A stretch of 64,000 bases of DNA from Lobosporangium transversale. Its lineage: Eukaryota. The stretch lies in contig NW_019028982.1 in the NCBI RefSeq assembly GCF_002105155.1, positions 930,001-994,000 on the forward strand, written 5' to 3'. The position numbers were made by a program, and so were the translations under genes. Below are positions 1-56,587 of the stretch, piece by piece. Numbering within the stretch: position 1 is the first letter of the stretch; the number at the start of each line of letters is the position of its first letter. The notes under the pieces are model-generated. The model made no database searches and was not told where the DNA came from. It saw only the letters and a list, made by a program, of their open reading frames with translations.

Positions 1-386
1 TGAGAGGACTGAACACAGGCAAATCTGCGCACGGCGCACATTCTATCTATTAAATCGAGTGGCTTATGTGCAATGCGAGGGAAACAGTAGAATCTCAATA
101 CCCTTCCTTTACAAGCAACCCTCTCCTGTGTAATTTATCTTTTATTAAAGCTCGAGATTCCTAAACTGAATAAATAATGAAAGTGGCATAGGATAGCCAT
201 CATCTTTCTTTTTCGATATGATAGAGATGTCTGTCTGACAGGTTCTTACTCATTAGAGAATGCACTTGTAGAGGAACCACTTCACTGCAGTTGTTTTGTT
301 TTTTATTTTTTTAATCCTTTTTTATTAAGAGATTGCTTGCTATCTAGCTATCTAGCTTACCTGGTTACTATCCTAAGCTACAAGAA

Positions 387-497
387 GCCAGACTCTTAGC
401 CACCTTGGAAAGCGCTTTTCTTTGTCACCATCGAAAAGACTCTCCAAGATGTTGTCCGGAGCACACCACGTGGAGGTGGTCTGGCATATCGTGCTCC
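387..497 (-). ncRNA. HDV-like self-cleaving ribozyme (copy 1)
   Basis: Minus strand folds as P1 GGAGCAC/GTGCTCC, J1/2 GATAT, P2 GCCAGAC/GTCTGGC, P3 ACC/GGT, L3 TCCACGT, P1.1 CC/GG, P4 CATCTTGGAGAG/CTTTCCAAGGTG and J4/2 GCTAA with the catalytic C. Confidence 0.85.
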
Positions 498-734
498 GTT
501 GGTCAGGCCCCATGGCCTTGCAAACGCCCGCACACACACACATTTATTAACCCATTCCCATCCCCATCCCCATTCCCTTTCCCATTCTGGACCGAAGGGC
601 TCCGCCATCGCAAGGCTCGTTAAAGAACCAGCTCAGGCTCATGCCCGTTCGGACCTACCTTAGATATGCATTGGTTGTTGCACCTTGGATGTGCATTGTT
701 GCTATGTTAAAGAGTGCTTTGTGTTGTGTTAGTA

Positions 735-769
<35 letters not shown>

Positions 770-791
770 GCTTTCTTATGTTTTTTATTGG

Positions 792-825
<34 letters not shown>

Positions 826-2936
826 CTTTTTTCTTCTTTCTGATATGAGATCTTTTTTTTTACTTTTCTTTTTTTGGGCTTTTATTGAGTCTTTTTTTTT
901 GGTTTTTTTTTCTTTGGTTAATTTTTTTTTAATTGTGTTTTTTCTTTGGGTTATTTTTTTTTTCTTTGGTTTTTTTGGTTTATTTTTTTGGTTTATTTTT
1001 TTGGTTTTTTTCTTTGGTTTTTTTTTTTCTTTTTCTTTTCTTTGGATTTTTTTTTTTTTTTTTTTTTTGGTTTCTTTTTTTTCTTTGGATTTTTCTTTTT
1101 TTTTTTGATTTAGTTTTTTTTTTTTTTTTTTTTGAGGCATTTGTTTCTGGAGGCGTTTGTTTTTTGCCTGGATGGACTGTTCGACCTTTCTTTGGTTTAG
1201 TCCTTTTGCTGGTGGCGCCGAGCTTTCGTTACCAGTGCCTTCCAGACCACACAATGAGAAGTGGCCTGGTCGCTATGATTTGGTGTTGTTCGTGAAGCCT
1301 TGGCCATCATACCCGAGATGGGATGGGCTGGCTATTTGGCCGCGGAGAAGGCCGTCGTTCGACTGCGGTAGACTATGAGGCCGTTTAGAGCGTGGCTATT
1401 TAGAGCGTGGCCATCTGGAGCGTAGCCAGTTGAATACGGCTTTTCGTTGGAGTGCAGCCGTTCGAGTATGGGCGCCTGAGTGTGGCAACCCGGCTGTGCG
1501 TTATGAAGCCCTAGTTGCTTTAGCCAGCTTCATGTCGTTGCAGTCTAATCGTGGAATGAAAAGAGAGACACAAGCAGAAAAAGAATAATCAGAACAAGGA
1601 CAGTGAAGCACAGAGTGACAGTGTTGAGAACTTCAGTAAGAGTGATTGTTTAGGGAGTGTTGCTTACCTTTTTGTCTTGGTTGAGGAGGCCGATGGTCGA
1701 GGAGACCGAGGAGAAAGAGAAGAGAAAAGAAGAAAAAAGAAGAGAGTCAAAATTAGTCCTTTTTATATTGGTTTCTTATTATTATTATTTACGTTCGCGC
1801 AAGAAGAGGAGAAGGGCCGAGGAGTGATTGGTGTTCAAAAGCGCGCTGTACTAAGTACCTTGCTTGCTGTACGCTCAAGAGCGACCAATAAAAGATAAGC
1901 AACAATTTAAAAAGATAAACAACAATATAAAAAGATAAAAAATAAATAAATATACGTGTCTTTGATGTCATCTGTCATATTTCATATGATAAAGAAGAGA
2001 CTCTCACGATTGAAAGTGGGAATAATGCTCTGTCCTCAAGACTCATAAGGAAAACCTGTCTATAAACAACCAGAGCATGAACTGTATTGCTCTCGAGCTT
2101 GTTTACTCTTATTGATAAAGGAGATTATCTTCTTTATCCTCTTCTTCTATTTCCTTTCTTCACTCCTAACAAGAGATGGGATAGACTGTCGTTGGACCTG
2201 TACTTTGGCAGCTTGCCGTTTTTCCAGAGTGTGGTGGAAAATAACACATGACATTCGTAAGAATACCTCTGCGCCTTTTTTTTTTTTTTATTTTTTTTTT
2301 TTATTTTCATGCAATACAATGTAGAATACATTAAGATTTGAAGGTGAAACAAAGTATCAACGTTTATATATCGACCAGTAAAAAGCACACGATCGTATCG
2401 AGGAAATGACGTGTCGTATCTCTTTGGCTCTTTGAAAAGGAAAATAAGGAAAAGAAAAAAAGGAAAAAAGTCTGTTTGAACAAAAACTGCCGCAGCACAG
2501 TTCCCACGACAATGCATCCTATTCTTTGTTAAGGATGAAGAGAAAGAATGGGAGAAGAGAGTCAAATAGCAAACTCTACTGATAGTACCTGATGAACCCC
2601 ATTGCTAAAGAAAAAAAGGTACTCGAGCTTAATGCTGGCGAAAAATGGGAGTATGCGAGTGTTGATAAGCTTGTGCTCTGAATCCTGTCCTTTTACTTTA
2701 GTCGCGTCACATCGCTCACTGTTTTCCTTTCTCTCTTTGTTGCACACCATACAAAGAGAGCATTGTGGCTCGTGCTCTTGTTGTTGTATGTATATATGAC
2801 CCTGCATATCTTTGAGGATGGTTATCCCTCCACCTGTAAGAGTTTTCTCTTTCTCCACCTTGCGAGCATATGAAAATTGACGGATGATATCACAAGCGCG
2901 CAGATTACCCATTTCAATTCCCGCTACGCCGCTTTC

Positions 2937-3303
2937 TTTTTTATTTTATTTTATTTTATTTTAATATATTTTATTTATTTTAATATATTTTATTTATTTT
3001 AATATATTTTATTTATTTTAATATATAGCCCGTTTCATTTGGTCGCGATACCTTATATTTTTTGAATACTTTCGAGTGTATTGGCAGCCAATTAGCTCGC
3101 TTGTTACGAGTATTGTTGCAAGTCCGTCACGTAGTGAGATGCCACCAGAACAATTCAATCATCGTTTTTAGATTAAAAATATAAGGTATCGTGACCAAAT
3201 AAAATTGGCGATATTTTATTTATTTTAATATATTTTATTTATTTTAATATATTTTATTTTATTTTAATATATTTTATTTTATTTTATTTTATTTTATTTT
3301 TTT
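2937..3303. repeat. AT-only tandem array: (TTTTA)n plus 19-bp unit AATATATTTTATTTATTTT, interrupted by a MITE
   Basis: Directly visible. The same array terminates the other two copies (6537-6708, 50680-50790). Confidence 0.9.
3026..3211. mobile_element. Tc1/mariner-type MITE (~186 bp) with TA target duplication
   Basis: Imperfect ~37-bp TIRs TAGCCCGTTTCATTTGGTCGCGATACCTTATATTTTT / AAAAATATAAGGTATCGTGACCAAATAAAATTGGCGA. TA at 3024-3025 and 3212-3213 restores the 19-bp array unit. Absent from copies 2 and 3. Confidence 0.85.
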
Positions 3304-3928
3304 GCTTAACTCAGTGACCGCTCTCTGTACACAGCTCAGCCGAGAGATGACCCACACAGGACGCATCCGAGTCCAAGGCTGCGATTTCAAAGACAGTGAG
3401 GAGGAAAATGTCTTTATCCTCTTCCTACCACTGTACTTACGCTCACCCATATCACTCACAGCAAACAACAGGTACTTGGTTATGATGGGAAACTATCAAG
3501 TGCAAACATTTTATTTTCCTCAATCTTTGTGGATTGAACATAGCTCTAAGGAGTTGGCAGAAAAGAGCTATCCCTTCTCAAACAAGCTTGAAGACTCATT
3601 TGCGCGCGGAGCTTTGGATCCAATGATGACTTATTTCTCCCCAGGGGATGACTAGGCTTTTGCGCTTGATTGGGCTAACCGATCCTCGCTGGAGTACGGC
3701 GTATGGCAAGGGGATCCGCTGAAGCCAGATGTGACGATTCGAAAGTACATTTTTGAGACGGCTTATGCTGAGACCAAGTCGTCTAAGGACAAGCGAAGCC
3801 TACATTTATTTCTCGAAGACCAATGGAGCCTAATGAGGTTTGCCAAGGACACGATTGACGAGAACCTACGTGATGAACGGGTTGTGATGGAGATCCCTTG
3901 TCTGCAAGTGTTTGGTAAGTCTATGTGA
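3304..3928 (+). pseudogene. Fragment of a PD-(D/E)XK restriction-endonuclease-like (Crinkler REase-like) gene
   Basis: ORFs 3302-3655 and 3731-3928 share one frame split by TAG at 3653. Read-through gives KPDVTI...AYAETK...D..SLMRFAKDTID...LQVFG, resembling Mucoromycota REase-fold proteins. Confidence 0.5.
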
Positions 3929-4896: not shown

Positions 4897-6404
4897 TCAT
4901 CGAAGAGAAAGGTTGGCACATTTTACTGCTCTGGCAACTAGCACTCCTACTATTGATTCCCCTGCTGTTGTTGTTTGTAATAGCTTAGAGAGACAAAGAT
5001 TATTAAAACAAACCTTTTCAGGCTTAAGACTATATATATTAAAACAAGCCTTTTCAGGCTTAAGACTAAATATTGTCACATTGTTACTCTTTGAACTCTC
5101 TTGTTGTTTTGAATCCGGACATAAAAAGTGAAGATGTCGATGGTGTTTGCAGGATTGCCACTGCCGCTATTGCTGTTGCTGTTTTTGTTTCTGTTTTAAG
5201 TTTAGAGCTAGAATCCTTAGTTGCATAATGCTTCATACACGTACTTTCTCTTTTGGATGTTCCCTGCTCACGAAGTCTGGGCTTTGCGCTGACCAAAGCT
5301 GTGGAGTGCTTTACTGCATCAGTCTAGATAACGCGGTCAGGTTGTGAAGCAATGGATTTAACCGATGTCGATGGTAATAAGGCTGTTTGATGTTGTATCG
5401 TGAGAAGAATGTATATGGGCAGCAGTTGTGCCATTTCAATCCGATTTTGCAGTTGCCTCGTTATCTTTTGCCTGGGGCATAGAGTATGGTTCAGATTCCC
5501 ATATTGATTCCCATATTGATTCCAATCTAGCTACTGGACCACGTATAAACTTTCTGTGAATTCGGTTAGGATTGCGGCTGTTATAATTGACTGACTGCAT
5601 CCACGACGAGGACGATGACCAATCATTAGCTGTATGGGCATTTGACAACAGTGTTGGGGCTGCAGTTGTTATACTTGAATGACCGCGTCCACGACGAGGA
5701 CGACGACGCGCCATTAGCTGTGTTGGCATTTAACGACGGTGGGACCATTCGGGTATAGCTTTCCATAATATTTCTAGCACGGAAGGCACTTGATCCAGAA
5801 GTAAAGGTTGTCAAGGCTTTAGTGGCAGCATCTTTGACGTCACTGTTATTGCCACCAATACTGTTGCTGATTAGGTTCGGTTGGGTCTTTTTGACAGTAA
5901 CATGACGAGGAACAGGTCCTGAGGTGGCAACGGAGTGTGATACCATAATAATTGACGATGAGGTAGTCGCCATTGCTGCTATAGTTAAATCTATGATCGT
6001 ACTTGCCGTGCTATACTGCTTGTCTTCTATTTTTCTTTGTCTTTGTTTCTTTTTATATCGTCGTTTCTTTGACAGCTGAGTGTTATGCTGAGTAAGAGGG
6101 TCAGAGGGCTCTTTGCGTTTCCTGATGGAATGTGGCGCCATAGTAGCTGGTGATGAGATAGCTGTTATTGTTGTTGTAATTAATGCTGTACTTGAGCTTG
6201 CCATGCTGCACTGGTTACTTTCTATTTCTTCTTGCCCTTGTTTCTTTTCATATCATCGTTTCTTTGGCAGCTGAGTGTCATGCTGGATAGGAGGGTTAGA
6301 GAGTTCTTTTCGTTTTGTGATGAAATGCATTTTTCTTTCTGGATAAGCAATGGGGAACTCAGTTGGAAAATAAAAAAGTGAAGGTATACTATTGCGATTA
6401 GCAA
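4897..6404 (-). pseudogene. Degenerate low-complexity ORF(s) with internal duplications and a basic NLS-like patch
   Basis: Fragmented ORFs (5626-6204 and others). Duplicated blocks at ~6055-6120 vs ~6250-6315, at ~5600-5635 vs ~5688-5722, and a ~34-bp duplication around 5000-5075. Confidence 0.3.
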
Positions 6405-7873
6405 TCATTTACATGGGTTATTACAATGGCTAATTTTTTACCTCTGGACCAACCGATTTGCGATTTCAAAGTATTGACTAAATAACGAATACATATTCAG
6501 CATCTTACTCTTTTGCGCCTTCTAGGGAGTTTATTCAAAAATAAAATAAAATAAAATAAAATAAAATAAAATAAAATAAAATATATTAAAATAAATAAAA
6601 TATATTAAAATAAATAAAATATATTAAAATAAATAAAATATATTAAAATAAATAAAATATATTAAAATAAATAAAATATATTAAAATAAAATAAAATAAA
6701 ATAAAAAAGAAAGCGGCGTAGCGGGAATTGAAATGGGTAATCTGCGCGCTTGTGATATCATCCGTCAATTTTCATATGCTCGCAAGGTGGAGAAAGAGAA
6801 AACTCTTACAGGTGGAGGGATAACCATCCTCAAAGATATGCAGGGTCATATATACATACAACAACAAGAGCACGAGCCACAATGCTCTCTTTGTATGGTG
6901 TGCAACAAAGAGAGAAAGGAAAACAGTGAGCGATGTGACGCGACTAAAGTAAAAGGACAGGATTCAGAGCACAAGCTTATCAACACTCGCATACTCCCAT
7001 TTTTCGCCAGCATTAAGCTCGAGTACCTTTTTTTCTTTAGCAATGGGGTTCATCAGGTACTATCAGTAGAGTTTGCTATTTGACTCTCTTCTCCCATTCT
7101 TTCTCTTCATCCTTAACAAAGAATAGGATGCATTGTCGTGGGAACTGTGCTGCGGCAGTTTTTGTTCAAACAGACTTTTTTCCTTTTTTTCTTTTCCTTA
7201 TTTTCCTTTTCAAAGAGCCAAAGAGATACGACACGTCATTTCCTCGATACGATCGTGTGCTTTTTACTGGTCGATATATAAACGTTGATACTTTGTTTCA
7301 CCTTCAAATCTTAATGTATTCTACATTGTATTGCATGAAAATAAAAAAAAAAAATAAAAAAAAAAAAAAGGCGCAGAGGTATTCTTACGAATGTCATGTG
7401 TTATTTTCCACCACACTCTGGAAAAACGGCAAGCTGCCAAAGTACAGGTCCAACGACAGTCTATCCCATCTCTTGTTAGGAGTGAAGAAAGGAAATAGAA
7501 GAAGAGGATAAAGAAGATAATCTCCTTTATCAATAAGAGTAAACAAGCTCGAGAGCAATACAGTTCATGCTCTGGTTGTTTATAGACAGGTTTTCCTTAT
7601 GAGTCTTGAGGACAGAGCATTATTCCCACTTTCAATCGTGAGAGTCTCTTCTTTATCATATGAAATATGACAGATGACATCAAAGACACGTATATTTATT
7701 TATTTTTTATCTTTTTATATTGTTGTTTATCTTTTTAAATTGTTGCTTATCTTTTATTGGTCGCTCTTGAGCGTACAGCAAGCAAGGTACTTAGTACAGC
7801 GCGCTTTTGAACACCAATCACTCCTCGGCCCTTCTCCTCTTCTTGCGCGAACGTAAATAATAATAATAAGAAA

Positions 7874-8100
7874 CCAATATAAAAAGGACTAATTTTGACT
7901 CTCTTCTTTTTTCTTCTTTTCTCTTCTCTTTCTCCTCGGTCTCCTCGACCATCGGCCTCCTCAACCAAGACAAAAAGGTAAGCAACACTCCCTAAACAAT
8001 CACTCTTACTGAAGTTCTCAACACTGTCACTCTGTGCTTCACTGTCCTTGTTCTGATTATTCTTTTTCTGCTTGTGTCTCTCTTTTCATTCCACGATTAG
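7874..8100 (+). promoter_or_regulatory. Putative Pol II core promoter and 5' intron inside the repeat
   Basis: CCAA-TATAAAAA at 7874-7885, CT-rich tract ~7899-7945, donor GTAAGC at 7978, CTGAT branch-like site ~8053, pyrimidine tract and TAG at 8098-8100. Followed by ATG 8112 of a 10-codon ORF. Confidence 0.55.
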
Positions 8101-8878
8101 ACTGCAACGACATGAAGCTGGCTAAAGCAACTAGGGCTTCATAACGCACAGCCGGGTTGCCACACTCAGGCGCCCATACTCGAACGGCTGCACTCCAACG
8201 AAAAGCCGTATTCAACTGGCTACGCTCCAGATGGCCACGCTCTAAATAGCCACGCTCTAAACGGCCTCATAGTCTACCGCAGTCGAACGACGGCCTTCTC
8301 CGCGGCCAAATAGCCAGCCCATCCCATCTCGGGTATGATGGCCAAGGCTTCACGAACAACACCAAATCATAGCGACCAGGCCACTTCTCATTGTGTGGTC
8401 TGGAAGGCACTGGTAACGAAAGCTCGGCGCCACCAGCAAAAGGACTAAACCAAAGAAAGGTCGAACAGTCCATCCAGGCAAAAAACAAACGCCTCCAGAA
8501 ACAAATGCCTCAAAAAAAAAAAAAAAAAAAAACTAAATCAAAAAAAAAAAAGAAAAATCCAAAGAAAAAAAAGAAACCAAAAAAAAAAAAAAAAAAAAAA
8601 ATCCAAAGAAAAGAAAAAGAAAAAAAAAAACCAAAGAAAAAAACCAAAAAAATAAACCAAAAAAATAAACCAAAAAAACCAAAGAAAAAAAAAATAACCC
8701 AAAGAAAAAACACAATTAAAAAAAAATTAACCAAAGAAAAAAAAACCAAAAAAAAAGACTCAATAAAAGCCCAAAAAAAGAAAAGTAAAAAAAAAGATCT
8801 CATATCAGAAAGAAGAAAAAAGAAAAAAAGAAAAAAGAAAAAAGAAAAAAAAAAGCCAATAAAAAACATAAGAAAGCC

Positions 8879-8911
<33 letters not shown>

Positions 8912-8990
8912 TACTAACACAACACAAAGCACTCTTTAACATAGCAACAATGCACATCCAAGGTGCAACAACCAATGCATATCTAAGGTA

Positions 8991-9095
8991 GGTCCGAACG
9001 GGCATGAGCCTGAGCTGGTTCTTTAACGAGCCTTGCGATGGCGGAGCCCTTCGGTCCAGAATGGGAAAGGGAATGGGGATGGGGATGGGAATGGG
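8991..9095 (+). other. Long hairpin (8991-9057) followed by a G-quadruplex motif (9063-9095)
   Basis: Pairings CCGAA-GGGC/GCCC-TTCGG, GCC/GGC, GGTTC/GAGCC with GA-rich internal loops. Six G-runs: GGGAAAGGGAATGGGGATGGGGATGGGAATGGG. Identical in all three copies. Confidence 0.6.
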
Positions 9096-9148
9096 TTAAT
9101 AAATGTGTGTGTGTGCGGGCGTTTGCAAGGCCATGGGGCCTGACCAAC

Positions 9149-9259
9149 GGAGTACGATATGCCAGACCACCTCCACGTGGTGTGCTCCGGACAACATCTT
9201 GGAGAGTCTTTTCGATGGTGACAAAGAAAAGCGCTTTCCAAGGTGGCTAAGAGTCTGGC
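9149..9259 (+). ncRNA. HDV-like self-cleaving ribozyme (copy 2)
   Basis: P1 9149-9155/9182-9188 (GGAGTAC, with a U-G wobble), P2 9161-9167/9253-9259, P3 9169-9171/9179-9181, L3 9172-9178, P1.1 GG 9189-9190, P4 9195-9245, catalytic C9247. Predicted cleavage at 9148/9149. Confidence 0.85.
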
Positions 9260-9667
9260 TTCTTGTAGCTTAGGATAGTAACCAGGTAAGCTAGATAGCT
9301 AGATAGCAAGCAATCTCTTAATAAAAAAGGATTAAAAAAATAAAAAACAAAACAACTGCAGTGAAGTGGTTCCTCTACAAGTGCATTCTCTAATGAGTAA
9401 GAACCTGTCAGACAGACATCCGCTATGCTCTACCAGTATTGTAGCCAACATCATTGAGTAGCATGCTTTTGAGCGATGATGCTCAAAGACAACAGTGTAA
9501 GCTTATTAAGGTACAAACATTTTTCTGGTTGTCCTCCAAAAGGTATCCGGCTCAGAAAAAAGTCTAGGAGACTTGATTCATGACTGAGCCCAGGATTTTT
9601 CACATGAGATCGCATTGTTATTATGGGATGACTTTGGGATATGAATGTCCAAAATTACAGTTTTTAT

Positions 9668-13002
<3,335 letters not shown>

Positions 13003-17600: not shown

Positions 17601-20600
17601 TCCTGAAGATGCGGAAGTTGGGGGGGCCTACATTACTGTTAAGAGTATTAAGGATTCTACTCTCAAGCTTGCTGAAGAGACGAACGAGATCATCCAGACA
17701 GCTGTCAAGGATGCACAACAATCTACCCTTGATGCAGCTGTTGATACCAAGGAAGTCATGGATGCAATGGCTAGTTCTGTAGTTAAGGCTAAGGATGCTG
17801 TCATTGAAGGAACAGTAGCCAGTACTGCTGATGTCAGTGAGGCTGCTCATAAAGCGACAGTTGGCACAAAGAAGATGATTGACGAAAAAATTGATTCAGC
17901 TATTGAGACCAAGGATTTCATTGTTGGTAAGGCCCAAGACGCTGTCAAGGGCTCCGGAGATGCTATCCACAGGGCTTCGGGCATCACGAAAAAGATCGCC
18001 AATGATACAATCCTCTCTGTATCCGATGCAAAGGATGCTCTTGCTGATAAAGCCCACACCGCGGCCAAAAACGCAAATGATGCTATCCATGAAACTGTTA
18101 TTGATGCCAGTCAAACTGTCGGTACCAAAATCGACTCGGTATTAAAGGCAGAAAATGTAGCCACAACAAGCGTTAAGGGCGCTATCAATCAAGCGGAAAC
18201 TGCTGTTCAAAAGAAAGGCAGAAAGGCTAAAAAGACAAAGAGTACTGCCAACGGGTCTAAAGGCAATGCAAATGGGAAACCAAAGGCTGCGGTCGAGGAT
18301 ACTGCAGCAAACTGCAAAAATAAGGGCAAATCCACTGCGGACGCTGACAAGGCAACGTTGGCTCTTGCTGGAGAGGACGGTATCCCTACCAAGGACCAAA
18401 CTGCTAGAGGACTTGGTCAAGGAGACAAAGCTAAAGAAAAAGAGACAGTCAGTATGGCTGCCGATAAAGGATCGAAGCAGGCAACCAAAAGCTCGTCTTC
18501 AACCGATACCTCTACTAATGCAACCGAAAGGCACCCTACTTCAGAGGCATCCCGAGACATACTCTCCTCTGCCAAGCACTTAGCTGGGGGGTTGGGAGAT
18601 ACCGCGGTCGAGATGTTGACCAACGGTGCTGAGATTGCAACTGAGTCTATGATCAACGCCAAGGACACCACGACCGCATATATGAATGCTGTCAAGAACG
18701 AACTCACGGGCGAGACTGCTACGGATAATAATAGTGTACTGAAAGATATTGAGAATGATGTTACGATCAAGCGGGAGTTCCATGGTATCAGTGCCTCTGA
18801 TTCGTCCGCTGCCAAAAAAGCTAGCCAAGTCGCTAGGGAATACTATGAATCACTCGATAACCCTACGGCTTCTTCTGCCTCCACGACTGCAGCTTCGACC
18901 TCTTCCCCCAGTTCTTCCCATACACACACCGCAGAGAAAGGACACGACACTGCAGGAAGAAATCAATCGGCCTCAAAATGTGAGAGCGGGCATCGTACTA
19001 AGCGAGGCAGTAGAATAATCCTTGATCATGACAATTATGTATTCAGGAACGAGGATGGTGATGAGCTCTCTGCAGGAGAGGTGGATACCGATAACAGTGA
19101 TGACGACGAGACTGGTGAAGATAATGCTTCTTCAGCCGACAGAGAAGGTGGCACCCATTACGATAACACTAACCGGGATCGTCAACGACGGGAAAGTCAA
19201 GATTTATCGTCAAAAGCGCCTGGTATCCTTGAATCTGCTAAAATGGCTGCGTCTGCAATGGCAGCCCGGGTGGCTGATGTCTCGTTCGAAAATCTGGATA
19301 TTGCAAAGAACTCGCTCACAGATGCCGTCAGCACTGCGAAGAGCACTTTGACTGGAGCATGGAGCCCTGGAAGCGAAAGTAGAGCTGATGCAAAGTCAAA
19401 TGAGCATGAAGATCAACAAGTATCGACATCATATCCTAAAATGGAGACACGCCTACCAGATTCGTCGGTTAAGGAAAATGATGGCCTTCTCAAGGGCAGA
19501 GGCAAGGAAATTGATGAAGAAAAAGTCAAAGGTAAAGAAGCGATCAAAGGAAAGGACGCTACTCCTACTGAAAGAGACACAGCTCCTGCTGAGAGGGACA
19601 CAACTTCTGCTGAAAGGGACACTGTTCCTGCTGAAAGAGACACAACTTTTGCTGAAAAAGACACAGCATCTGCTGAAAAGGGCAAAACTTCTGCTGAAAA
19701 GGGCACAATTTTTGCTGAGAGGGACACAGGTTCTACTGAAAAGGGCACAACTTCTGCTGAAAGGGACACTGCTCCTGCTGAGAGGGACACAACTTCTGCT
19801 GAAAGGGACACTGTTCCTGCTGAAAGAGGCACAACTTTTGCTGAAAAAGACAGAGCATCTGCTGAAAAGGGCACAACTTCTGCTGAGAAGGGCACAACTT
19901 CTGCTGAAAAGGGCACAACTTCTGCTGAAAGAGACACAGCTTCTGCTGAAAGGGACACTACTGCGGAAAGGGACGCGAACTCGAGCTCGAACATGACCAA
20001 CTTGAAGGAGAGTCGATCTGCTGCTACTTCTGCACCTCTTTATTCTGAAGTTGCAGCAACAAACATTTCGGAGACGGCCAACAATAATAAAGCCGGTTCC
20101 TCGAAGAAGAAACAAGATGTTCATCTTCCAAAGGCGGTCCAACGTTCTATTACCACAGCCCAGCCCGCAGCCCCCCTCACCAATTCAGCCCAGGTTTTTG
20201 CTCAGTCGCAGCAGTACTCACCAACACAGCCAATCGAGCCCCAAAGCTATTCTCGTCAACACTCGATCAATGAATCATCTAGTGAGTTAGGTGCCTCTTC
20301 ACCTACATCTCGGAGCCCAATAGCTGCTCCTATAGGCCGAGGAGCTCTGAGTTACAGTGGCGCATTAAGGAAGAATTCAGTCAATGATGGCCATGCTGTC
20401 CGCATGGGTTTGGCAGACCCTCTTTCCTCGGATGATGACTCCTCTATTTATCGCTTTCAGTCTAGGTCTCCTTCGTTATATTCTTTACTTGAGAGTCAAA
20501 ACTCCGTTCAAGAATATGGAAAGTCACCTCCAACAACCACAGTGTCATTCAAGCATGGTCAAGGACAATCAACTCGAGGATCAAGACCAGGATCACTGGC

Positions 20601-47939: not shown

Positions 47940-48384
47940 TTTTTTTTTTTTTTTTTTTGTGTGAATACTTTTTATTAAGAGATTGCTTGCTATCTAGCTA
48001 TCTAGCTTACCTGGTTATTATCCTAAGCTACAAGAAGCCAGACTCTTAGCCACCTTGGAAAGCGCTTTTCTTTGTCACCATCGAAAAGACTCTCCAAGAT
48101 GTTGTCCGGAGCACACCACGTGGAGGTGGTCTGGCATATCGTGCTCCGTTGGTCAGGCCCCATGGCCTTGCAAACGCCCGCACACACACACATTTATTAA
48201 CCCATTCCCATCCCCATCCCCATTCCCTTTCCCATTCTGGACCGAAGGGCTCCGCCATCGCAAGGCTCGTTAAAGAACCAGCTCAGGCTCATGCCCGTTC
48301 GGACCTACCTTAGATATGCATTGGTTATTGCACCTTGGATGTGCATTGTTGCTATGTTAAAGAGTGCTTTGTGTTGTGTTAGTA

Positions 48385-48416
<32 letters not shown>

Positions 48417-50790
48417 GGCTTTCTTATGTTTTTAATTGGTTTTTTTTTTTCTTTTTTTCTTTTTTCTTTTTTCTTTTTTCTTCTTTCTGATATGAGATCT
48501 TTTTTTTTACTTTTCTTTTTTGGGGCTTTTATTGAGTCTTTTTTTTTGGTTTTTTTTTTCTTTGGTTAATTTTTTTTTAATTGTGTTTTTTCTTTGGGTT
48601 ATTTTTTTTTTTCTTTGGTTTTTTTGGTTTATTTTTTTGGTTTTTTTCTTTGGTTTTTTTCTTTGGTTTTTTTCTTTGGTTTTTTTCTTTGGTTTTTTTC
48701 TTTCTTTTTCTTTTCTTTGGATTTTTTTTTTTTTTTTTTTTGGTTTCTTTTTTTTCTTTGGATTTTTTTCTTTTTTTTTTTTTTGATTTAGTTTTTTTTT
48801 TTTTTTTCTTTTTTTTTTTTTTTTTCTTTTTTTTTTGAGGCATTTGTTTCCGGAGGCGTTTGTTTTTTGCCTGGATGGACTGTTCGGCCTCTCTTTGGTT
48901 TCACCCTTCGCCTAGTGGCGTCGAGCTTCGGTACCAGTGCCTTCCAGACCACGCTGTGGGAAGTGGTCTGGTTGCTATGATTTAGGATTATTCGTGAAGC
49001 CTTGACCATCATCCCAAGATGGGGTGGGCTGGCTATACGGCCGTGGAGAAGGTCTGTTCGTTTGACTGCGGCAGACTGGCCTTTGTACGAGGCCGTTTAG
49101 AGCGTGGCTGTTTAGAGCGTGGCCATCTGGAGCGTGGCCGTCTGGAGCGTGGCCATCTGGAGCGTGGCCAGTTGAATACGGCTTTTCGTTGGAGTGCAGC
49201 CGTTCGAGTATGGGCGCCTGAGTGTGGCAGCCTGGCTGTGCGTTATGAAGCCCCAGTTGCTTTAGCCAGCTTCATGTCGTTGCAGTCTAATCGTGGAATG
49301 AAAAGAGAGACACAAGCAGAAAATAAATAATCAGAACAAGGACAGTGAAGCACAGAGTGACAGTGTTGAGAACTTCAGTAAGAGTGATTGTTTAGGGAGT
49401 GTTGCTTACCTTTTTGTCTTGGTTGAGGAGGCCGATGGTCGAGGAGACCGAGGAGAAAGAGAAGAGAAAAGAAGAAAAAAGAAGAGAGTCAAAATTAGTC
49501 CTTTTTATATTGGTTTCTTATTATTATTATTTACGTTCGCGCAAGAAGAGGAGAAGGGCCGAGGAGTGATTGGTGTTCAAAAGCGCGCTGTACTAAGTAC
49601 CTTGCTTGCTGTACGCTCAAGAGCGACCAATAAAAGATAAGCAACAATTTAAAAAGATAAACAACAATATAAAAAGATAAAAAATAAATAAATATACGTG
49701 TCTTTGATGTCATCTGTCATATTTCATATGATAAAGAAGAGACTCTCACGATTGAAAGTGGGAATAATGCTCTGTCCTCAAGACTCATAAGGAAAACCTG
49801 TCTATAAACAACCAGAGCATGGACTGTATTGCTCTCGAGCTTGTTTACTCTTATTGATAAAGGAGATTATCTTCTTTATCCTCTTCTTCTATTTCCTTTC
49901 TTCACTCCTAACAAGAGATGGGATAGACTGTCGTTGGACCTGTACTTTGGCAGCTTGCCGTTTTTCCAGAGTGTGGTGGAAAATAACACATGACATTCGT
50001 AAGAATACCTCTGCGCCTTTTTTTTTTTTTATTTTTATTTTTTATTTTCATGCAATACAATGTAGAATACATTAAGATTTGAAGGTGAAACAAAGTATCA
50101 ACGTTTATATATCGACCAGTAAAAAGCACACGATCGTATCGAGGAAATGACGTGTCGTATCTCTTTGGCTCTTTGAAAAGGAAAATAAGGAAAAGAAAAA
50201 AAGGAAAAAAGTCTGTTTGAACAAAAACTGCCGCAGCACAGTTCCCACGACAATGCATCCTATTCTTTGTTAAGGATGAAGAGAAAGAATGGGAGAAGAG
50301 AGTCAAATAGCAAACTCTACTGACAGTACCTGATGAACCCCATTGCTAAAGAAAAAAAGGTACTCGAGCTTAATGCTGGCGAAAAATGGGAGTATGCGAG
50401 TGTTGATAAGCTTGTGCTCTGAATCCTGTCCTTTTACTTTAGTCGCGTCACATCGCTCACTGTTTTCCTTTCTCTCTTTGTTGCACACCATACAAAGAGA
50501 GCATTGTGGCTCGTGCTCTTGTTGTTGTATGTATATATGACCCTGCATATCTTTGAGGATGGTTATCCCTCCACCTGTAAGAGTTTTCTCTTTCTCCACC
50601 TTGCGAGCATATGAAAATTGACGGATGATATCACAGATGCGCAGATTATCCATTTTCAATTCCCGCTACGCCGCTTTCTTTTTTATTTTATTTTATTTTA
50701 TTTTATTTATTTTAATATATTTTATTTATTTTAATATATTTTATTTATTTTAATATATTTTATTTATTTTAATATATTTTATTTTATTTT
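47940..50790 (-). repeat. Copy 3 of ribozyme-bearing repeat
   Basis: Same orientation as copy 1. Homology starts ~47968, preceded by a T19 run (47940-47958), and ends in the AT array abutting the DIRS element. Confidence 0.95.
48037..48147 (-). ncRNA. HDV-like self-cleaving ribozyme (copy 3)
   Basis: Sequence identical to 387-497, so the same double-pseudoknot pairing applies. Confidence 0.85.
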
Positions 50791-50950
50791 ATTATCCTCG
50801 TAGCCATGGTCCATATGTGTGACCTCTTTTTATTCCTTCTGACCGAGAAAAAACTAAAAATAAAATAAATAAAATCTAGCGTTCGCTCTGATCTACTCTC
50901 TATCTTCTTTTTTCTCGCTCAGGAACACATCCAGCGTATTGAAGTTCCAA

Positions 50951-51875
50951 ATGAGCGAGTATGACACTTCTGATCCAATTATACACTCTCTCCAGAGCCA
51001 GCTGGCTACACTCACCAGCCGGCTTGAAGCTCTCTCGACTAGCTCTGAATCCAGTCGATCGAACCCCTACTTGGTTCCAAAAGAACCAGCTTACGAAATT
51101 ACACCTGACGACTCCATTCTCGTCCACTACCCAGCAATGGACGGGAAAGATTTTTTCAAACATAAATCTGGAAACCGTGCAGACGATCTTGCATATGCAA
51201 CAGAAATGGCTAAAGAGATGCAGTCTTTTGCCAAAAACACAACCCAAACCTATTCTGCACCCAAATCGGCACTCATTGACTGGCCCGACTCTTCCTCTCA
51301 CCACAGTTCCACGGACAAAACAATCTCACGCTATCAATCACGATTGGCAAACCTTACAAGACCACTTGATCAATTTGCCACGGAAATGTTTTCCTACGAA
51401 GTTGACCCTGCGGTCGCACAAGCGTGTTTACAGCTCGCACAGACAATGCGTGAACATATTGCACACCTTGCACAGCAAATGTCAAGCGACAGGGAGGACC
51501 TTGTTTACCAAAGCGCACAAAATTTCAGTCACCAAGGACACAGTTGATCCACCAATTGTCTCTACTTCAGACTTCATTGAAGCCAGCAAATTGGCAAAGA
51601 GTGTTCGTCAGGCTACTAACCCGACAAGACAACGGGCGTACAACAGGAGGACTCAAAACCGGAGTTTCTTTAGCGCAAATACTTACAGACCCACTTCTAA
51701 TTCTAGCCAATCTCATCCATCGGGTCAAACTCAGACCGCCCACTATCAAAATGACAATGGTTCTTTTTTTGGGCGAGGCCAAAATCCAAGGAGAGGGGGA
51801 CGAGGCCGAGGCCGAGGCTACCAAACCCCTCAATCCAACCAGACAAGTCAGGCACAGACTGCAGGCCAGCAGTAG
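50951..51875 (+). CDS. DIRS gag-like protein (frameshift near 51508)
   Basis: MSEYDTSD...DLVY continues as KAHKISVTK... in the other frame (extra C in TTACCAAAG). RGG-rich C-terminus. Confidence 0.75.
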
Positions 51876-53743
51876 GTGGCCGTTTACAGATTTACAGAGA
51901 AGCATGGGCTCTCATAACCGACAACGAATGGGTCAAGTCGGTCGTCTCCGAGGGATTCAAAATCCCTTTCCACAAACGGCCACCGATATCCAGTTCAACA
52001 GCGTACCAAGCTCGAGTAGCAGCGGAGGAAGAGAAGGCGATCGATCAAGAGGTAATCGCACTCTTAGCCAAAAGAGCAATAGAGGTCGCTTCGGGCCCTG
52101 GTTTCAAGAGCCGAATATTCACTATCCCCAAGAAAACCGGGGACATTCGTCCAGTCTTAAATCTAAGACCGTTGAATGCCTACGTCTCAGAGCGGCACTT
52201 CAAAATGGAGACGATGACGACAGTATGCGCAATGTTACAGAAGAACGACTTTATGACAAGCATCGACCTATCAGACGCATTTCTTCACGTACTAATCCAT
52301 CCAGATTATCGTCATTATCTACAGTTCCAATGGAAGAACCGGAAATTTCAATTCCGTACACTTCCCTTCGGGCTCTCACTCTCTCCGCTAGTGTTCACCA
52401 AAGTTCTCAAGCCTTTCCTCAAATGGGCACGACGACGAGGAATTCGCATATCAGCGTACCTAGACGATTTGATAATCCTAGCCAAGAACAAAGAACAATC
52501 AATCCAGTTCACTCAACTAGTGCAAGACAAGTTGGCAGCGCTAGGATTCCTCATCAAGGAAGCCAAGTCTACGTTGATCCCGTCACAGAAAATAGACCAT
52601 TTAGGCTTCACCATCAACTCCCGGGATATGACTGTCACAGTTCCGAAATCCAAAGTCAGGGACATACGGCGCGAGGCAGGAAAGCTACTACGAAAAGGCG
52701 CCACTTCTTTAAGGGAACTTTCTTCGTTCGTCGGGAAAGCAATGGCAACATCTATGGCAGTGTTCCCAGCGCGATTCATGACACGGAATCTGCTTCACCT
52801 CAAGAACACAGCACTAAAAGCCAAGGGAGCTTCTTGGTCGGACACGGTCACCCTCACGGAACCAGCCAAGGAGAACCTTCAATGGTGGAAGGAGCAATTG
52901 ACGTCATGGAATGGTCTGTCATGGATTCAACAACAGACACAAATGGACATATACACGGATGCATCGGACACCGGATGGGGGATCGTGATCAACAATCAAA
53001 CATGGAGTGGCAAATGGACTCCACAAGAGAAAGACCACCACATCAACTGGAAGGAACTACAGACAGTTCTTCGAGCTGTTCAACTACCAATAACACAGGG
53101 CAAAATGATCAACATCATATGCGACAACACGACAACGATTGCACACATCAACAGGTTCGGAGGGACGAGGTCTCCGGAACTAATGAGACTAGCGGACACG
53201 TTATGGCGTCACTGCCTAGCAACGGGGACTCGACTTCGGACGACATACATCCCATCTGCATTCAACCCAGCGGATGCACCGTCACGGCGAATGATATCGC
53301 AATTGGAATGGAGGATCAGTCGCCCATTCTTTCAACAACTGGAACACCAATGGGGGCCACATCAGGTGGACCTATTTGCGTCGGCACAGAACAAACAGCT
53401 ACCGACATTTGTCTCATGGAAATTCCATCCAGATGCTCTGAAGATAGACGCCCTTCAACACAACTGGACAGAGATGGGCAACCTTTACATTTGCCCCCCA
53501 TGGAATCTTCTATCAATCATCTTGGAGAGGATACAGACCCAGAAACTGACAGCAACAGTAATAACCCCATGGTGGCCGAGTGCAATATGGTTCCCAACCA
53601 TCAAGGAGATGGCAGTAGCACCACCAATCCCGATCCCTCGGGAAGCAGTCCTACCAGCCGTCGGAAGCGCAAGCGATCTCCTCAGCAAGAATCCACTCTG
53701 GTCATTGACAGCATGGAGAATAAGAGGCGACGTAAAGATCTAG
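51872..53743 (+). CDS. DIRS reverse transcriptase - RNase H - adenine-methyltransferase-like polyprotein
   Basis: VGGRL start motif at 51872, IDLSDAF, LPFGL, YLDD, YTDAS..GWG, HINWKEL, DN, NPADAPSR, VDLFAS, YICPPW. No in-frame ATG at the start. Confidence 0.92.
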   Translation, partial: VGGRLQIYREAWALITDNEWVKSVVSEGFKIPFHKRPPISSSTAYQARVAAEEEKAIDQEVIALLAKRAIEVASGPGFKSRIFTIPKKTGDIRPVLNLRPLNAYVSERHFKMETMTTVCAMLQKNDFMTSIDLSDAFLHVLIHPDYRHYLQFQWKNRKFQFRTLPFGLSLSPLVFTKVLKPFLKWARRRGIRISAYLDDLIILAKNKEQSIQFTQLVQDKLAALGFLIKEAKSTLIPSQKIDHLGFTINSRDMTVTVPKSKVRDIRREAGKLLRKGATSLRELSSFVGKAMATSMAVFPARFMTRNLLHLKNTALKAKGASWSDTVTLTEPAKENLQWWKEQLTSWNGLSWIQQQTQMDIYTDASDTGWGIVINNQTWSGKWTPQEKDHHINWKELQTVLRAVQLPITQGKMINIICDNTTTIAHINRFGGTRSPELMRLADTLWRHCLATGTRLRTTYIPSAFNPADAPSRRMISQLEWRISRPFFQQLEHQWGPHQVDLFASAQNKQLPTFVSWKFHPDALKIDALQHNWTEMGNLYICPPWNLLSIILERIQTQKLTATVITPWWPSAIWFPTIKEMAVAPPIPIPREAVLPAVGSASDLLSKNPLWSLTAWRIRGDVKI

Positions 53744-54716
53744 ATGCAGGACTCTCACCATCCGCTATCACTCTACTAGATTCAGCAGGTGCCAACAGCA
53801 AAACACGTCGACAATATCTGCCAACTCAAGAGGCTTTCGCAGTATGGGCTCAACAAGAAGGCTTCGACCCTAGTACGCCAAATGCAATTGCTGTAGTTAA
53901 CTATTTATGCCATGCGCGGATTATCTATTCTTGGAGTAGGAATACCACTCTTAACAAAAAATCAGCCATCTTAAAGCTTTACGACGACACATCCGTGATC
54001 ACAGGCAATATCTACTTTCAGCGGTTCATGGCAGCAATGAAAAGTACTGGCGTATTTCAAATGGAGCACGTATCCGCACTCGACATTTCACCCATCCTTT
54101 CATACTTCCGCATGGAGGACAATGTGGATCTTGATATGCCTAAGCTCTCTCGCAAGCTCTGCTGGCTCTTAGGCGTTTGTGCGTTTCTCCGGCCAGATGA
54201 TATCGGTTGCATTGATGTGTCAAAGTCAGATATCAATGAAAGGGTCTTCTCCTTACCATAGTCTTCCCTAAGGAACGGCGCGATGGGCAGCGCATCATAA
54301 AGTCGATCTTCGTAGGTAGACACCCTAACGACAAGAAAATTTGCCCAGTCGAGGCCTATACAGAATACACCAGACGGATAGCGGACACACCTCTCGAAAT
54401 CGAGCACCACAAAGATCAGGATTATAAATTCAATCCTCTTATGCGTTTTGTGAAAGACAAGTCCAAAGTCCTTAGGGTCAGTACCATAGGCACTTTTATG
54501 AATGAAATCACACGTCGGATTCCAAATCTTCCGTCGAAACGGCCTCCTCCAAAGCCACGCGCTATAGGATCAACCTTGGCAGCCATCGCTGGCGTATCAA
54601 CCCAAGATATCATGGTTCAAGGGAATTGGTCGTCTGACAAGGTTTTCAACAAACACTACCGTGTTTCCCGCAAAACCCATTCAAATTTGACGACATCGGT
54701 TTTTGGTTCGCTCTGA
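53715..54716 (+). CDS. DIRS tyrosine recombinase (frameshift near 54252)
   Basis: FLRPDD (R), FPKE (K), ICPVEA, KPRAIGST (xxxR), GNW and HYR (Y). The N-terminal half lies at the end of the 905-aa ORF that overlaps the RT frame. Confidence 0.85.
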
Positions 54717-54719
54717 AGT

Positions 54720-54810
54720 CACATATGGACCATGGCTACGAGGATAATGATCTGGAAGTGCTACGAAGGACGCACTATCCTCATTATCAGAGTAGCCATG
54801 GGACATATGT
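54720..54810 (+). other. DIRS internal complementary region (ICR)
   Basis: CACATATGGACCATGGCTACGAGGATAAT is the reverse complement of the left terminus. GATCTGGAAGTGCTACG...GGGACATATGT is the reverse complement of the right terminus. Confidence 0.93.
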
Positions 54811-54847
54811 CCCTCCCACACCTCCCTTTTCTTTTCACTCGTTACTA

Positions 54848-56448
54848 CAGTGGTCATCAAAGTCATTCAATGATTTGAATTTTTAACATTCTCATTCCTT
54901 TTCTTCATTCTCATCTAGCATGTGGCTAGTATATTTGGGGTAGTGCATTTGTTCCCACACCTCATGATTACTTTCATGTCTCATTCCTAATTATGACTTC
55001 ATTGTGAAATAAAACCAATTTCAATTTGACCTGCCTATTGAATGACTTCTGCTGAATTTCAATGTTGATTGCAAAAAAAACTTTTTCACTTCTCTTTTTT
55101 CTACCAAGATTACCTTCAGCTATATCTTCATACACCTCTACTTACAATTAACATTCCACATCGTTTAGTATTTATTATGAGGACGCTTTCTATGGAAAAG
55201 GTACAAAATGCTCAGGCCTTACTTCGACAAGGGAAGTCTACAAGCGAAGTGGCAAGGCAACTTGGTATCTCTATTTCATCGGCAATAAGGATCAGGAGGG
55301 ACGTCAAGGACAATATTCCTAAACCCAGAATGGGCAGACCCTCATTGGTTTCCCCTGCTACCAAGAGGGTTATTGCACGCGAGGTTGATACGGGGAAACT
55401 TAGATCCATTCTGGCAGTTCAAGAATACATCAGATCGAGCCATGGAGTGCATGTCAGTGTAGAGACTGCCCGACGCTATGTAAAATCAGAGGGTTTGAAA
55501 AACTATGTCCGCCCATTCAAGCCTAGGCTGACAAAAATGCAGATTGCGAAAAGGAAGAATTTTGCCCTCAACCACCTTGACTGGACTGTTGATGACTGGA
55601 AGCGAGTGATGTTCTCGGACGAAAAGCTTTTTGAAAGGCTAGGGTCCTTAGGAGGAAGAACACAATATAGGCGACCCGGCCACAGGACTTTAGAAGATCG
55701 AGATGTTAGAGAGAGATCAAGGGGAGCACATAACAAACTTATGTGGTGGGGCTGTATCACTTATCATGGTGTAGGCGATGGTTGCAGGATCCCTGCCACA
55801 GTTGATTCCTCTTTATATGTTGATGTTCTACAAGATTATGTCCTCGGCTCATGGAAGTGGTATGGCCAGGACCCTGAAAAGTTAATTTTTCAGCAGGACA
55901 ATGCAAGTGTTCATACGAGTAGGATGGTTAAAGAGTTCTTAATTAAGTCACACATTACCACTTTGGAGTGGCCTCCAAATTCTCCTGACCTCAACCCTAT
56001 CGAGAATGTATGGGCCTACATGGATCATCGGCTCAAGGGATATGAGAAGGTACCAAAGGATCTGGATGAACTATGGGAAAGACTACAGGATATCTGGACA
56101 TCTATTCCACCTGACTTCCTTGATGAGCTATATGAAAGTATGCCACGAAGGGTAGAGGAGCTACATCGCATGAAAGGAGGTCGTACACATTACTGAAGAA
56201 CAGAAAAAAAAAACAAATAAAGCAAAGCTGCTGATTTTCTTCAAATGTCATTCAATGAGATGCCAATAATTGGCATTCATCTAAATTTTCAATTAGCAAC
56301 AGGAGCTCATTGACATTGTAGTAGGAGTGACGTTGTCGATGGTCAAACTCGCTACGTAAGTTTCATTAGCGACAAGCAAGATCAAATTGGAGAAAGGAAT
56401 GAGAATGTCGAAATTCCTAATTCATTGAATGACTTTTGATGACCACTG
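54848..56448 (+). mobile_element. Tc1/mariner DNA transposon (1.6 kb) nested in the DIRS element
   Basis: TIRs CAGTGGTCATCAAAGTCATTCAATGA / TCATTGAATGACTTTTGATGACCACTG. TA duplications at 54846-54847 and 56449-56450. Confidence 0.95.
55177..56196 (+). CDS. Tc1-family DD34E transposase (339 aa, intact)
   Basis: N-terminal HTH, GRP, VMFSDEK, FQQDNA and WPPNSPDLNPIEN, with 34 residues between the second D and E. Confidence 0.95.
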   Translation: MRTLSMEKVQNAQALLRQGKSTSEVARQLGISISSAIRIRRDVKDNIPKPRMGRPSLVSPATKRVIAREVDTGKLRSILAVQEYIRSSHGVHVSVETARRYVKSEGLKNYVRPFKPRLTKMQIAKRKNFALNHLDWTVDDWKRVMFSDEKLFERLGSLGGRTQYRRPGHRTLEDRDVRERSRGAHNKLMWWGCITYHGVGDGCRIPATVDSSLYVDVLQDYVLGSWKWYGQDPEKLIFQQDNASVHTSRMVKEFLIKSHITTLEWPPNSPDLNPIENVWAYMDHRLKGYEKVPKDLDELWERLQDIWTSIPPDFLDELYESMPRRVEELHRMKGGRTHY

Positions 56449-56587
56449 TAGATAGAGAGTAGAACGCTAGATTTTATTTATTTTATTTTTAGTTTTCTCG
56501 GTCAGAAGGAATAAAAAGAGGTCACACATATGTCCCATGGCTACTCTGATAATGAGGATAGTGCGTCCTTCGTAGCACTTCCAGATC

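Follow-up and report, generated by a model that had tools for sequence, protein, structure and literature searches.

The best-known role of HDV-like ribozymes is that of a 5' head on retroelements such as R2, RTE, Baggins and L1Tc/NARTc (PMC6765202). In fungi, Li and Breaker reported in 2017 a set of 230 HDV variants from 26 species, two of which were shown to cleave, and described as their marks a G-C pair at the cleavage site, an extra nucleotide (usually C) between P2 and P3, and a P4 that is partly loop E (PMC5640933). Fungal HDV-like ribozymes are therefore known to cut, and the available text of that paper gives no biological role for them. Cleavage by this class leaves a cyclic phosphate on the upstream product and a 5'-OH on the downstream product (PMC5640933, PMC10879173). 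Two further systems bear on how such a ribozyme might serve its host sequence: theta ribozymes, which are HDV-like and adjoin phage tRNAs, process those transcripts (PMC10879173), and in a Penelope-like element (PLE) the uncut, ribozyme-bearing RNA is the main insertion substrate (PMC11167929).

Here we analyse a stretch of 64,000 nucleotides from Lobosporangium transversale (contig NW_019028982.1, positions 930,001 to 994,000), hereafter the window, in whose own numbering all positions are given. We take the host to belong to the Mortierellaceae: a glutathione S-transferase encoded in the window has 52 relatives other than itself, and those that carry names come from genera of that family, the nearest from Lobosporangium transversale. 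The window contains a real and probably active ribozyme. Its class is known but its host group is new, and it stands at the 3' end of a young multi-copy repeat, an unusual place for such a fold.

The ribozyme fold

A first-pass annotation had placed an HDV nested double pseudoknot at 9149-9259, with all elements in order, and had counted three copies of it. The sites are:

9149..9259, plus strand: HDV-like ribozyme fold of copy 2, predicted cut 9148/9149, predicted catalytic C9247
387..497, minus strand: HDV-like ribozyme fold of copy 1, C at P1 position 5
48037..48147, minus strand: HDV-like ribozyme fold of copy 3, C at P1 position 5

Both the coordinates and the parts given in that annotation are correct. 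All parts of the fold lie in the right order within the 111 nt of 9149-9259 with zero broken pairs, and the ribozyme copies start at 9149 (plus), 497 (minus) and 48147 (minus). P1 (9149-9155/9182-9188) has 7/7 pairs, the first of which, G9149-C9188, sets a purine-pyrimidine pair at the predicted cut site. After a J1/2 of 5 nt, P2 (9161-9167/9253-9259) has seven Watson-Crick pairs, to which C9168-G9251 adds another across a bulged A9252; an equivalent view is of an extra C between P2 and P3. P3 (9169-9171/9179-9181) has 3/3 pairs, L3 (9172-9178) is the 7-nt loop UCCACGU, and both C-G pairs of P1.1 (C9173,C9174/G9189,G9190) are present. P4 is a continuous 13-bp helix (9195-9207/9233-9245) with 5 bp more, and J4/2, reading G-C9247-U-A-A, fits C-N-R-A with the predicted catalytic C. 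Every structural feature examined is satisfied, which supports membership of the HDV-like class, and the fold at 9149-9259 is a real HDV-like ribozyme fold, for which cleavage is predicted at 9148/9149. The sole difference among the three copies in 111 nt is a T at 9153 in the copy starting at 9149, where the other two have C. The pairing is kept, as the annotation had noted, by a U-G pair in P1; as it occurs in a single copy, this one change is weak evidence when taken alone.

The fold stands far beyond chance. A descriptor search of the 64-kb window returned exactly three sites, namely the three copies, and the same descriptor applied to 600 dinucleotide shuffles (76.8 Mb, both strands) gave one loose match and none equal to the real fold. 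The nested fold has a z of -3.72, and 0/200 shuffles fold equally well. Of the two kinds of search that the annotation had named as checks, the descriptor thus finds all three sites, but the Rfam HDV models score below gathering. Across the whole window no Rfam family matched at its gathering score; within 9000-9450, the top two by score among nine matches are the HDV families RF02682 (HDV-F-prausnitzii; 32.6 bits against a cut-off of 44, E 2.3e-4) and RF00094 (HDV; 29.5 bits against a cut-off of 50, E 0.02), both below gathering. Summed over all the readings considered below, we hold it very probable that the ribozyme is active.

The host repeat

The ribozyme is carried by a non-coding repeat of ~2.8 kb with three copies in the window. 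Its features are:

6535..9420, plus strand: whole repeat, copy 2 (repeat match 6583-9420)
226..3303, minus strand: whole repeat, copy 1 (repeat match 226-3026), 99.7% identical to copy 2 over 2804 nt
47940..50795, minus strand: whole repeat, copy 3 (repeat match 47942-50795), 93.6% identical to copy 2 overall
6535-6705, plus strand: AT-rich microsatellite of copy 2, the upstream end of the repeat on the ribozyme strand
7878-7884, plus strand: TATA-like segment, by sequence
7978-8100, plus strand: intron-like segment, GT..AG with a branch-like site, splicing putative
8512-8907, plus strand: A-rich tract of 396 nt, 79% A
9104..9148, plus strand: conserved leader, with a UG repeat, a predicted 5-bp hairpin at 9128-9141, then 7 nt
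9260..9350, plus strand: tail, with a splice-donor-like site at 9283-9291, AATAAA at 9320-9325 and a short A-rich stretch
47940..47976, minus strand: 3' end of copy 3, with AATAAA at 47976-47971, 12 nt, and an A19 run at 47958-47940

On the ribozyme strand the microsatellite is followed by a non-coding body of ~1.2 kb, and the ~240 nt between the A-rich tract and the ribozyme end in the UG repeat and the predicted hairpin, which comes from folding and is unstable in some leader contexts. The annotation's description of this context as atypical is borne out: the ribozyme lies near the 3' end of the repeat, there is conserved sequence upstream of the predicted cut, and the window copies have their upstream sequence in common for 2.5 kb before the ribozyme. 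Its observation that no retrotransposon ORF follows likewise holds for all three window copies, after none of which was an RT or endonuclease ORF or a LINE-derived 3' end found. Pfam gave no match in six frames of 6705-8506 (stops read as X) and none in 12 frames of the element and spacer. Lysine-rich frames across the A-rich tract, which are not the same from copy to copy, were rejected as compositional. The sequence upstream of the ribozyme has no match to an Rfam family or a tRNA, and the window has no tRNA.

The common 3' end of the family is the AATAAA located 60 nt downstream of the ribozyme. In contrast to the A19 run of copy 3, the 3' ends of copies 1 and 2 are merely A-rich, with no clean poly(A) run. 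Long runs are common in this genome, with 20 A/T runs of at least 19 in the 55 kb outside the repeat; the chance that such a run starts within a given 30-nt window is here ~0.5% per strand, and AATAAA precedes 1/20 of the runs of this length outside the repeat. Target-site duplications were sought at the copies and none was identified; both ends are A-rich and the flanks look rearranged.

For the window the annotation's count of three copies is right, but the three did not arise independently, and the family as a whole has many more members. Copies 1 and 2 have four differing positions besides homopolymer lengths, and have in common 95 nt past the AATAAA; they form an inverted, head-to-head pair with both 3' ends outward and a 3.6-kb spacer. 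Copy 1 is likely a recent local inverted duplication, and the three copies of the window probably represent two insertions plus this local inverted duplication. Between copies 3 and 2, substitutions cluster in the part matching 8220-8500. This patch (8220-8500 against ~49130-48850) is ~12% diverged, whereas the rest of the two copies is ~99% identical, and it reads as a mosaic that may have come about by recombination or template switching between subfamilies. The microsatellite end of copy 3 is lost at the adjoining DIRS1-like element.

Searches of the element for a terminal inverted repeat, a Helitron-like end or split direct repeats found none. A foldback or long-TIR transposon was rejected as a description of the repeat, since most copies end at 9325 and not at the 9420 end of the inverted pair. 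A derivative of DIRS or Ngaro was also rejected: there are no inverted terminal repeats with an internal complementary region (ICR), no split direct repeats, and no real homology to the adjacent DIRS element, with which the repeat has no match beyond an A-rich scrap. Ngaro has been reported as absent from early-branching fungi in the available text of PMC3783388.

Neighbouring elements and genes

The DIRS1-like retrotransposon adjoining copy 3 (50791-56590) has gag-like frames, an RT/RNase H/Dam ORF at 51755-53743, inverted terminal repeats, and an internal complementary region at 54720-54810 with matches to the two ends. Where the tyrosine recombinase would be expected there is a frameshifted ORF with no Pfam match, which we presume to be that enzyme. 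On the left the element ends within the copy 3 microsatellite and on the right it breaks a WD40-like gene, so that its flanks seem to derive from different sites. Nested within it is a Tc1/mariner transposon (54845-56451), which has 85-bp inverted repeats and a DDE transposase frame (55069-56196) that looks intact. The copy 1 microsatellite contains a MITE-like element (3027-3210) with imperfect terminal inverted repeats, and no second copy of it was found in 3300-64000.

ORFs of the spacer between copies 1 and 2 were considered as genes of the element and rejected, being decayed fragments of host-type genes. One such fragment, at 3308-3916 on the plus strand, is ~50% identical to Mortierellaceae hypothetical proteins and is cut exactly at the copy 1 microsatellite; its relatives form a large Mucoromycota family with a nuclease-like fold, and we take it to be Crinkler-like. 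Another, at 5081-6250 on the minus strand, is a decayed duplicate of the N-terminal part of a gene, presumably Bin3/MePCE-like, of which one relative (P0056) ends in a methyltransferase domain. Elsewhere in the window, a 21-nt coding tandem repeat (7 residues) occupies 19488-20033 within an open frame of 1,252 codons.

The family across the genome

Contigs of four sequencing runs were compared with 8915-9700; three of these are DNA runs and the fourth, X7, is possibly RNA. Summed contig depth, which is a rough guide and not a copy number, places the ribozyme at ~17-27x single-copy in 3/3 DNA runs, with a gradient from 9-18x at 9023-9068 to 17-35x at 9145-9274. Depth falls and loose ends diverge at 9325-9328; the contig reaching 9420 has a depth of 1.7-3.4x, and beyond it depth is 1x. 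The rise toward the 3' end fits 5' truncation, and divergence could give the same gradient. T9153 occurs at ~1x single-copy depth in all three DNA runs, from which it follows that copy 2 is real and its wobble private. Most family copies have at least 230 nt upstream of the ribozyme in common, plus the A-rich tract. In several low-depth contigs (1.4-7.9 kb) the match, at ~85%, is confined to leader, ribozyme or tail, indicating that older relatives exist. One diverged locus matches the leader (9104-9145) with two differences, and the diverged loci listed with upstream letters keep the 3' arm of the leader. None of the loose ends listed (24 of 88) falls at 9148/9149, although a few copies may yet begin at G1, and the other 3' ends listed are loosely A-rich only.

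In the possibly-RNA run X7, a 410-nt contig of a diverged subfamily spans the predicted cut site; in another contig, of 6,521 nt, the leader occupies positions 161-202 and ~6 kb follow it downstream. The same run is without cover across 9374-9643, and a 2,888-nt contig begins at 9647 near the end of the neighbouring gene, a hint of RNA to which we give no weight as evidence.

Variation within the family shows signs of selection on the fold, in that the sequence variants fall in the direction that selection would be expected to give. The statistics cover the best-supported 40 of 83 substitutions, a selected list for which the p values are modest. Among these 40 substitutions, 24 lie in 8921-9103, ten in P4, four in the tail, one in the 45-nt leader and one in the 60 core positions, giving 1 substitution per 60 positions in the core compared with 39 per 345 elsewhere (Fisher p = 0.018). 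Substitutions in homologues that break P1, P2 or P3, which the annotation had named as grounds for doubt, were looked for in the same 40: all five stem variants keep the pair (a probability of ~0.047 were transitions random), and the other six ribozyme variants are all in the P4 tip or bulge. No indel falls in the ribozyme among the 12 of 32 listed. Taken with the structural features and the shuffles, the retention of the stems by family variants upholds the annotation's assignment to the HDV-like class.

Origin of the repeat

The repeat hosting the ribozyme is likely a parasitic jumping element. Our preferred account, held tentatively and at a little under an even chance, is that it is a non-autonomous retroelement whose uncut, polyadenylated RNA is copied by a LINE-type enzyme from elsewhere, and that the ribozyme would trim the transcript near its 3' end. 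A polymerase II transcript would read across the A-rich tract, then the leader and the ribozyme, as far as the AATAAA, and the ribozyme would cut this transcript 5' of G9149, at 9148/9149. The upstream RNA would then close with the hairpin and the 7 nt after it and bear a 2',3'-cyclic phosphate; the downstream piece, of ~190 nt, would bear a 5'-OH. In this way the ribozyme may form a hairpin-capped 3' end or limit the amount of full-length RNA, and it would not set a 5' end. Since the cut site lies inside the genomic copies, any that derive from RNA must stem from uncut transcripts, which a LINE-type enzyme supplied from elsewhere would copy in their polyadenylated form. Conservation on both sides of the cut, and an element end ~175 nt after it, mean that the cut cannot define the 5' end of the element, and since at least 230 nt upstream are common to the copies, the ribozyme does not serve as a 5' head in the manner of R2, RTE and L1Tc. 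Retroposition is supported by copy 3, with its AATAAA, 12 nt and A19. Counting against it are the presence of a clean poly(A) run in only 1/2 independent window insertions, the failure to identify a target-site duplication and the retention of the intron-like segment, as an ordinary LINE-copied mRNA would lose its intron. No autonomous partner or RT linked to the repeat was found in the window or by Pfam in the repeat body.

Several features of the repeat would also suit a Penelope-like element, in which the leader-ribozyme-tail block would be a pLTR with an HDV-like ribozyme replacing the hammerhead and the window copies would be truncated or non-autonomous. A cut in a tandem or full-length copy would then define the RNA ends, the conserved hairpin leader would become the RNA 3' end, and splicing from the donor-like site at 9286 could bypass the AATAAA and reach an ORF downstream, such that the donor would hide the poly(A) signal of the 5' copy. 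The ribozyme indeed stands within a conserved terminal block close to the 3' end, the repeat keeps an intron-like segment, the inverted pair stands head-to-head with outward 3' ends and an AT-rich microsatellite at the other end, and a minority of copies have the 95-nt extension; a pLTR ribozyme, retained introns, inverted truncated copies, tails and a microsatellite bias are all described for PLEs in the available texts (PMC4209133, PMC8557442, PMC11167929). The 6,521-nt X7 contig, with the leader near its start and ~6 kb downstream, would be the autonomous partner, although it could be an unrelated neighbouring gene. However, the PLE ribozymes described are hammerheads, fungal ones included (PMC4209133), the window has no PLE RT, and inverted copies of PLEs directly adjoin each other, while the pair seen here is separated by 3.6 kb containing old pseudogene fragments. 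The tail, moreover, is present at both ends and longer than the 30-40 bp described, and an end of AATAAA plus A19 fits LINE-type copying better, all of which leaves a Penelope-like origin unlikely in our view, if far from negligible. We give similarly limited credence to a spread by DNA duplication or capture rather than through RNA, of a non-coding RNA gene composed of a promoter, an intron, an A-rich exon, a ribozyme that forms the 3' end and a back-up poly(A) signal. The copies have in common not only the promoter-like and intron-like segments but also the preceding stretch of more than 1 kb, copies 1 and 2 look like a DNA-level duplicate including flank, copy 3 is a mosaic, ~99% identical except for one diverged patch, and the diverged low-copy loci keep leader, ribozyme and tail only; the published fungal HDV variants, in addition, have widely variable gene associations (PMC5640933, available text). 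DNA-level spread sits poorly, though, with a family that stops sharply at the AATAAA while its flanks differ, with the A19 tail on one copy, with a depth that rises toward the 3' end, and with the failure to find a terminal inverted repeat or Helitron-like end.

That the ribozyme is after all the 5' head of a LINE or of an internally deleted derivative (ribozyme, 65 nt and poly(A)), with the common upstream sequence as a preferred target, is very unlikely. This is the best-known role of the class, the ~190-nt downstream piece ending in AATAAA plus A19 has the right shape, the depth of the ribozyme exceeds that upstream, and the 6.5-kb contig is of LINE-like length; but most copies have at least 230 nt upstream plus the A-rich tract in common, no loose end occurs at the cut site among the 24 of 88 listed, the leader is kept in diverged loci, and the upstream sequence offers no Rfam family or tRNA match usable as a target gene. 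We think it hardly more plausible that the fold is a relic, inactive or prone to misfold, which the young repeat carries as a passenger. The Rfam scores are under threshold and a contig of the possibly-RNA run spans the cut site. In folding predictions, P1 probability is sensitive to leader length and falls to 0.11-0.6 in some contexts, and a register-shifted 5-bp P3 beats the native P3 by 4.2 kcal/mol before P2 formation. This gain is outweighed, however, by the P2 duplex at -12.4 kcal/mol, and a relic would accord badly with zero broken pairs and a core that is near-invariant while its flanks vary; fungal ribozymes that carry this extra C are reported to cleave (PMC5640933, available text).

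Comparison with known systems

The published fungal HDV variants resemble this ribozyme in the G-C first pair, the extra C (here C9168), the fungal host and the non-coding location, but their P4 contains loop E whereas here it is the continuous 13-bp helix (PMC5640933). With two of the three marks present and no loop E, we do not file the sequence under the fungal HDV variant. The species visible in the available text of that report are ascomycetes, in contrast to the present Mortierellaceae host and its many-copy repeat with the ribozyme before a poly(A) signal, and its available main text has no mention of Mortierella or Mucor. RF02682 and RF00094 have the nested double pseudoknot and a near-identical P3/L3 and J4/2, and the RF02682 consensus, read by eye, has the same start of P2 with a C-G pair and a bulged A. 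The present fold differs from both families in its much longer P4, in an A rather than G at the first J1.1/4 position, and in its eukaryotic repeat context.

The 5' ribozymes of R2, RTE, Baggins and L1Tc/NARTc are of the same class and likewise belong to dispersed multi-copy repeats with an A-rich 3' end, but in those the ribozyme is preceded by variable sequence and followed by the element, while here what precedes it is conserved and no more than ~65 nt come after it (PMC6765202). The pLTRs of PLEs are alike in having a ribozyme in a terminal block, copies spanning the cut, an intron-like segment and inverted copies (PMC4209133, PMC8557442, PMC11167929); they differ in that the present ribozyme is HDV-like and not a hammerhead (no hammerhead match was found in 6500-9450), no RT was found, the end is of poly(A) type, and a spacer separates the inverted copies. 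Theta ribozymes of gut phages are comparable as HDV-like folds placed to process neighbouring RNA, yet they are minimal folds in phage hosts with a tRNA upstream, which the window lacks (PMC10879173). The literature searched, which lay mostly outside subscription journals, yielded no report of an HDV-like ribozyme with Mortierella, none on Penelope-like hammerheads in Mucoromycota and, in the texts available, none of an HDV-like ribozyme in a pLTR or with a tyrosine recombinase in this arrangement.

A scan with the core pattern of the fold found six loci in viral contigs, three in metagenomes and none in prokaryote genomes, none of them a fungal relative. By the criteria applied, P1 occurs together with P2/P4 in seven of the nine loci (L001-L009), and of the other two one shows P1 alone and one P2/P4 alone, so that the core pattern picks out HDV-like folds and is silent on the present element. 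L001-L006 and L008 are further HDV-like folds in viral or metagenome contigs, of which the phage loci L002-L004 and L006 have the P3/L3 core of the present fold and follow what is by eye a tRNA-like 3' end, as theta ribozymes do. On two animal-like metagenome contigs, L007 (64-1130) and L009 (398-2650), an SGNH/GDSL-hydrolase ORF precedes an HDV-like core on the same strand; the L009 core is complete with a bulged base in P2, and in L007 P4 and J4/2 were not found. We presume the SGNH ORF to be linked to Ngaro-type retrotransposons, in which case these loci could be the 3' end of such an element and a possible second HDV-like fold near an element 3' end. Eleven matches to the leader in viral contigs were taken as chance, with no ribozyme visible in the next 60 nt.

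This ribozyme has a defined place in a young multi-copy element, between a conserved leader and a poly(A) signal, and natural variants of it exist, which makes its role directly testable. Should it prove to form a 3' end or to belong to a terminal repeat, it would break the pattern by which HDV-like ribozymes stand at the 5' ends of LINEs and hammerheads in Penelope repeats. Whatever its role, it brings the HDV-like class into the Mortierellaceae.
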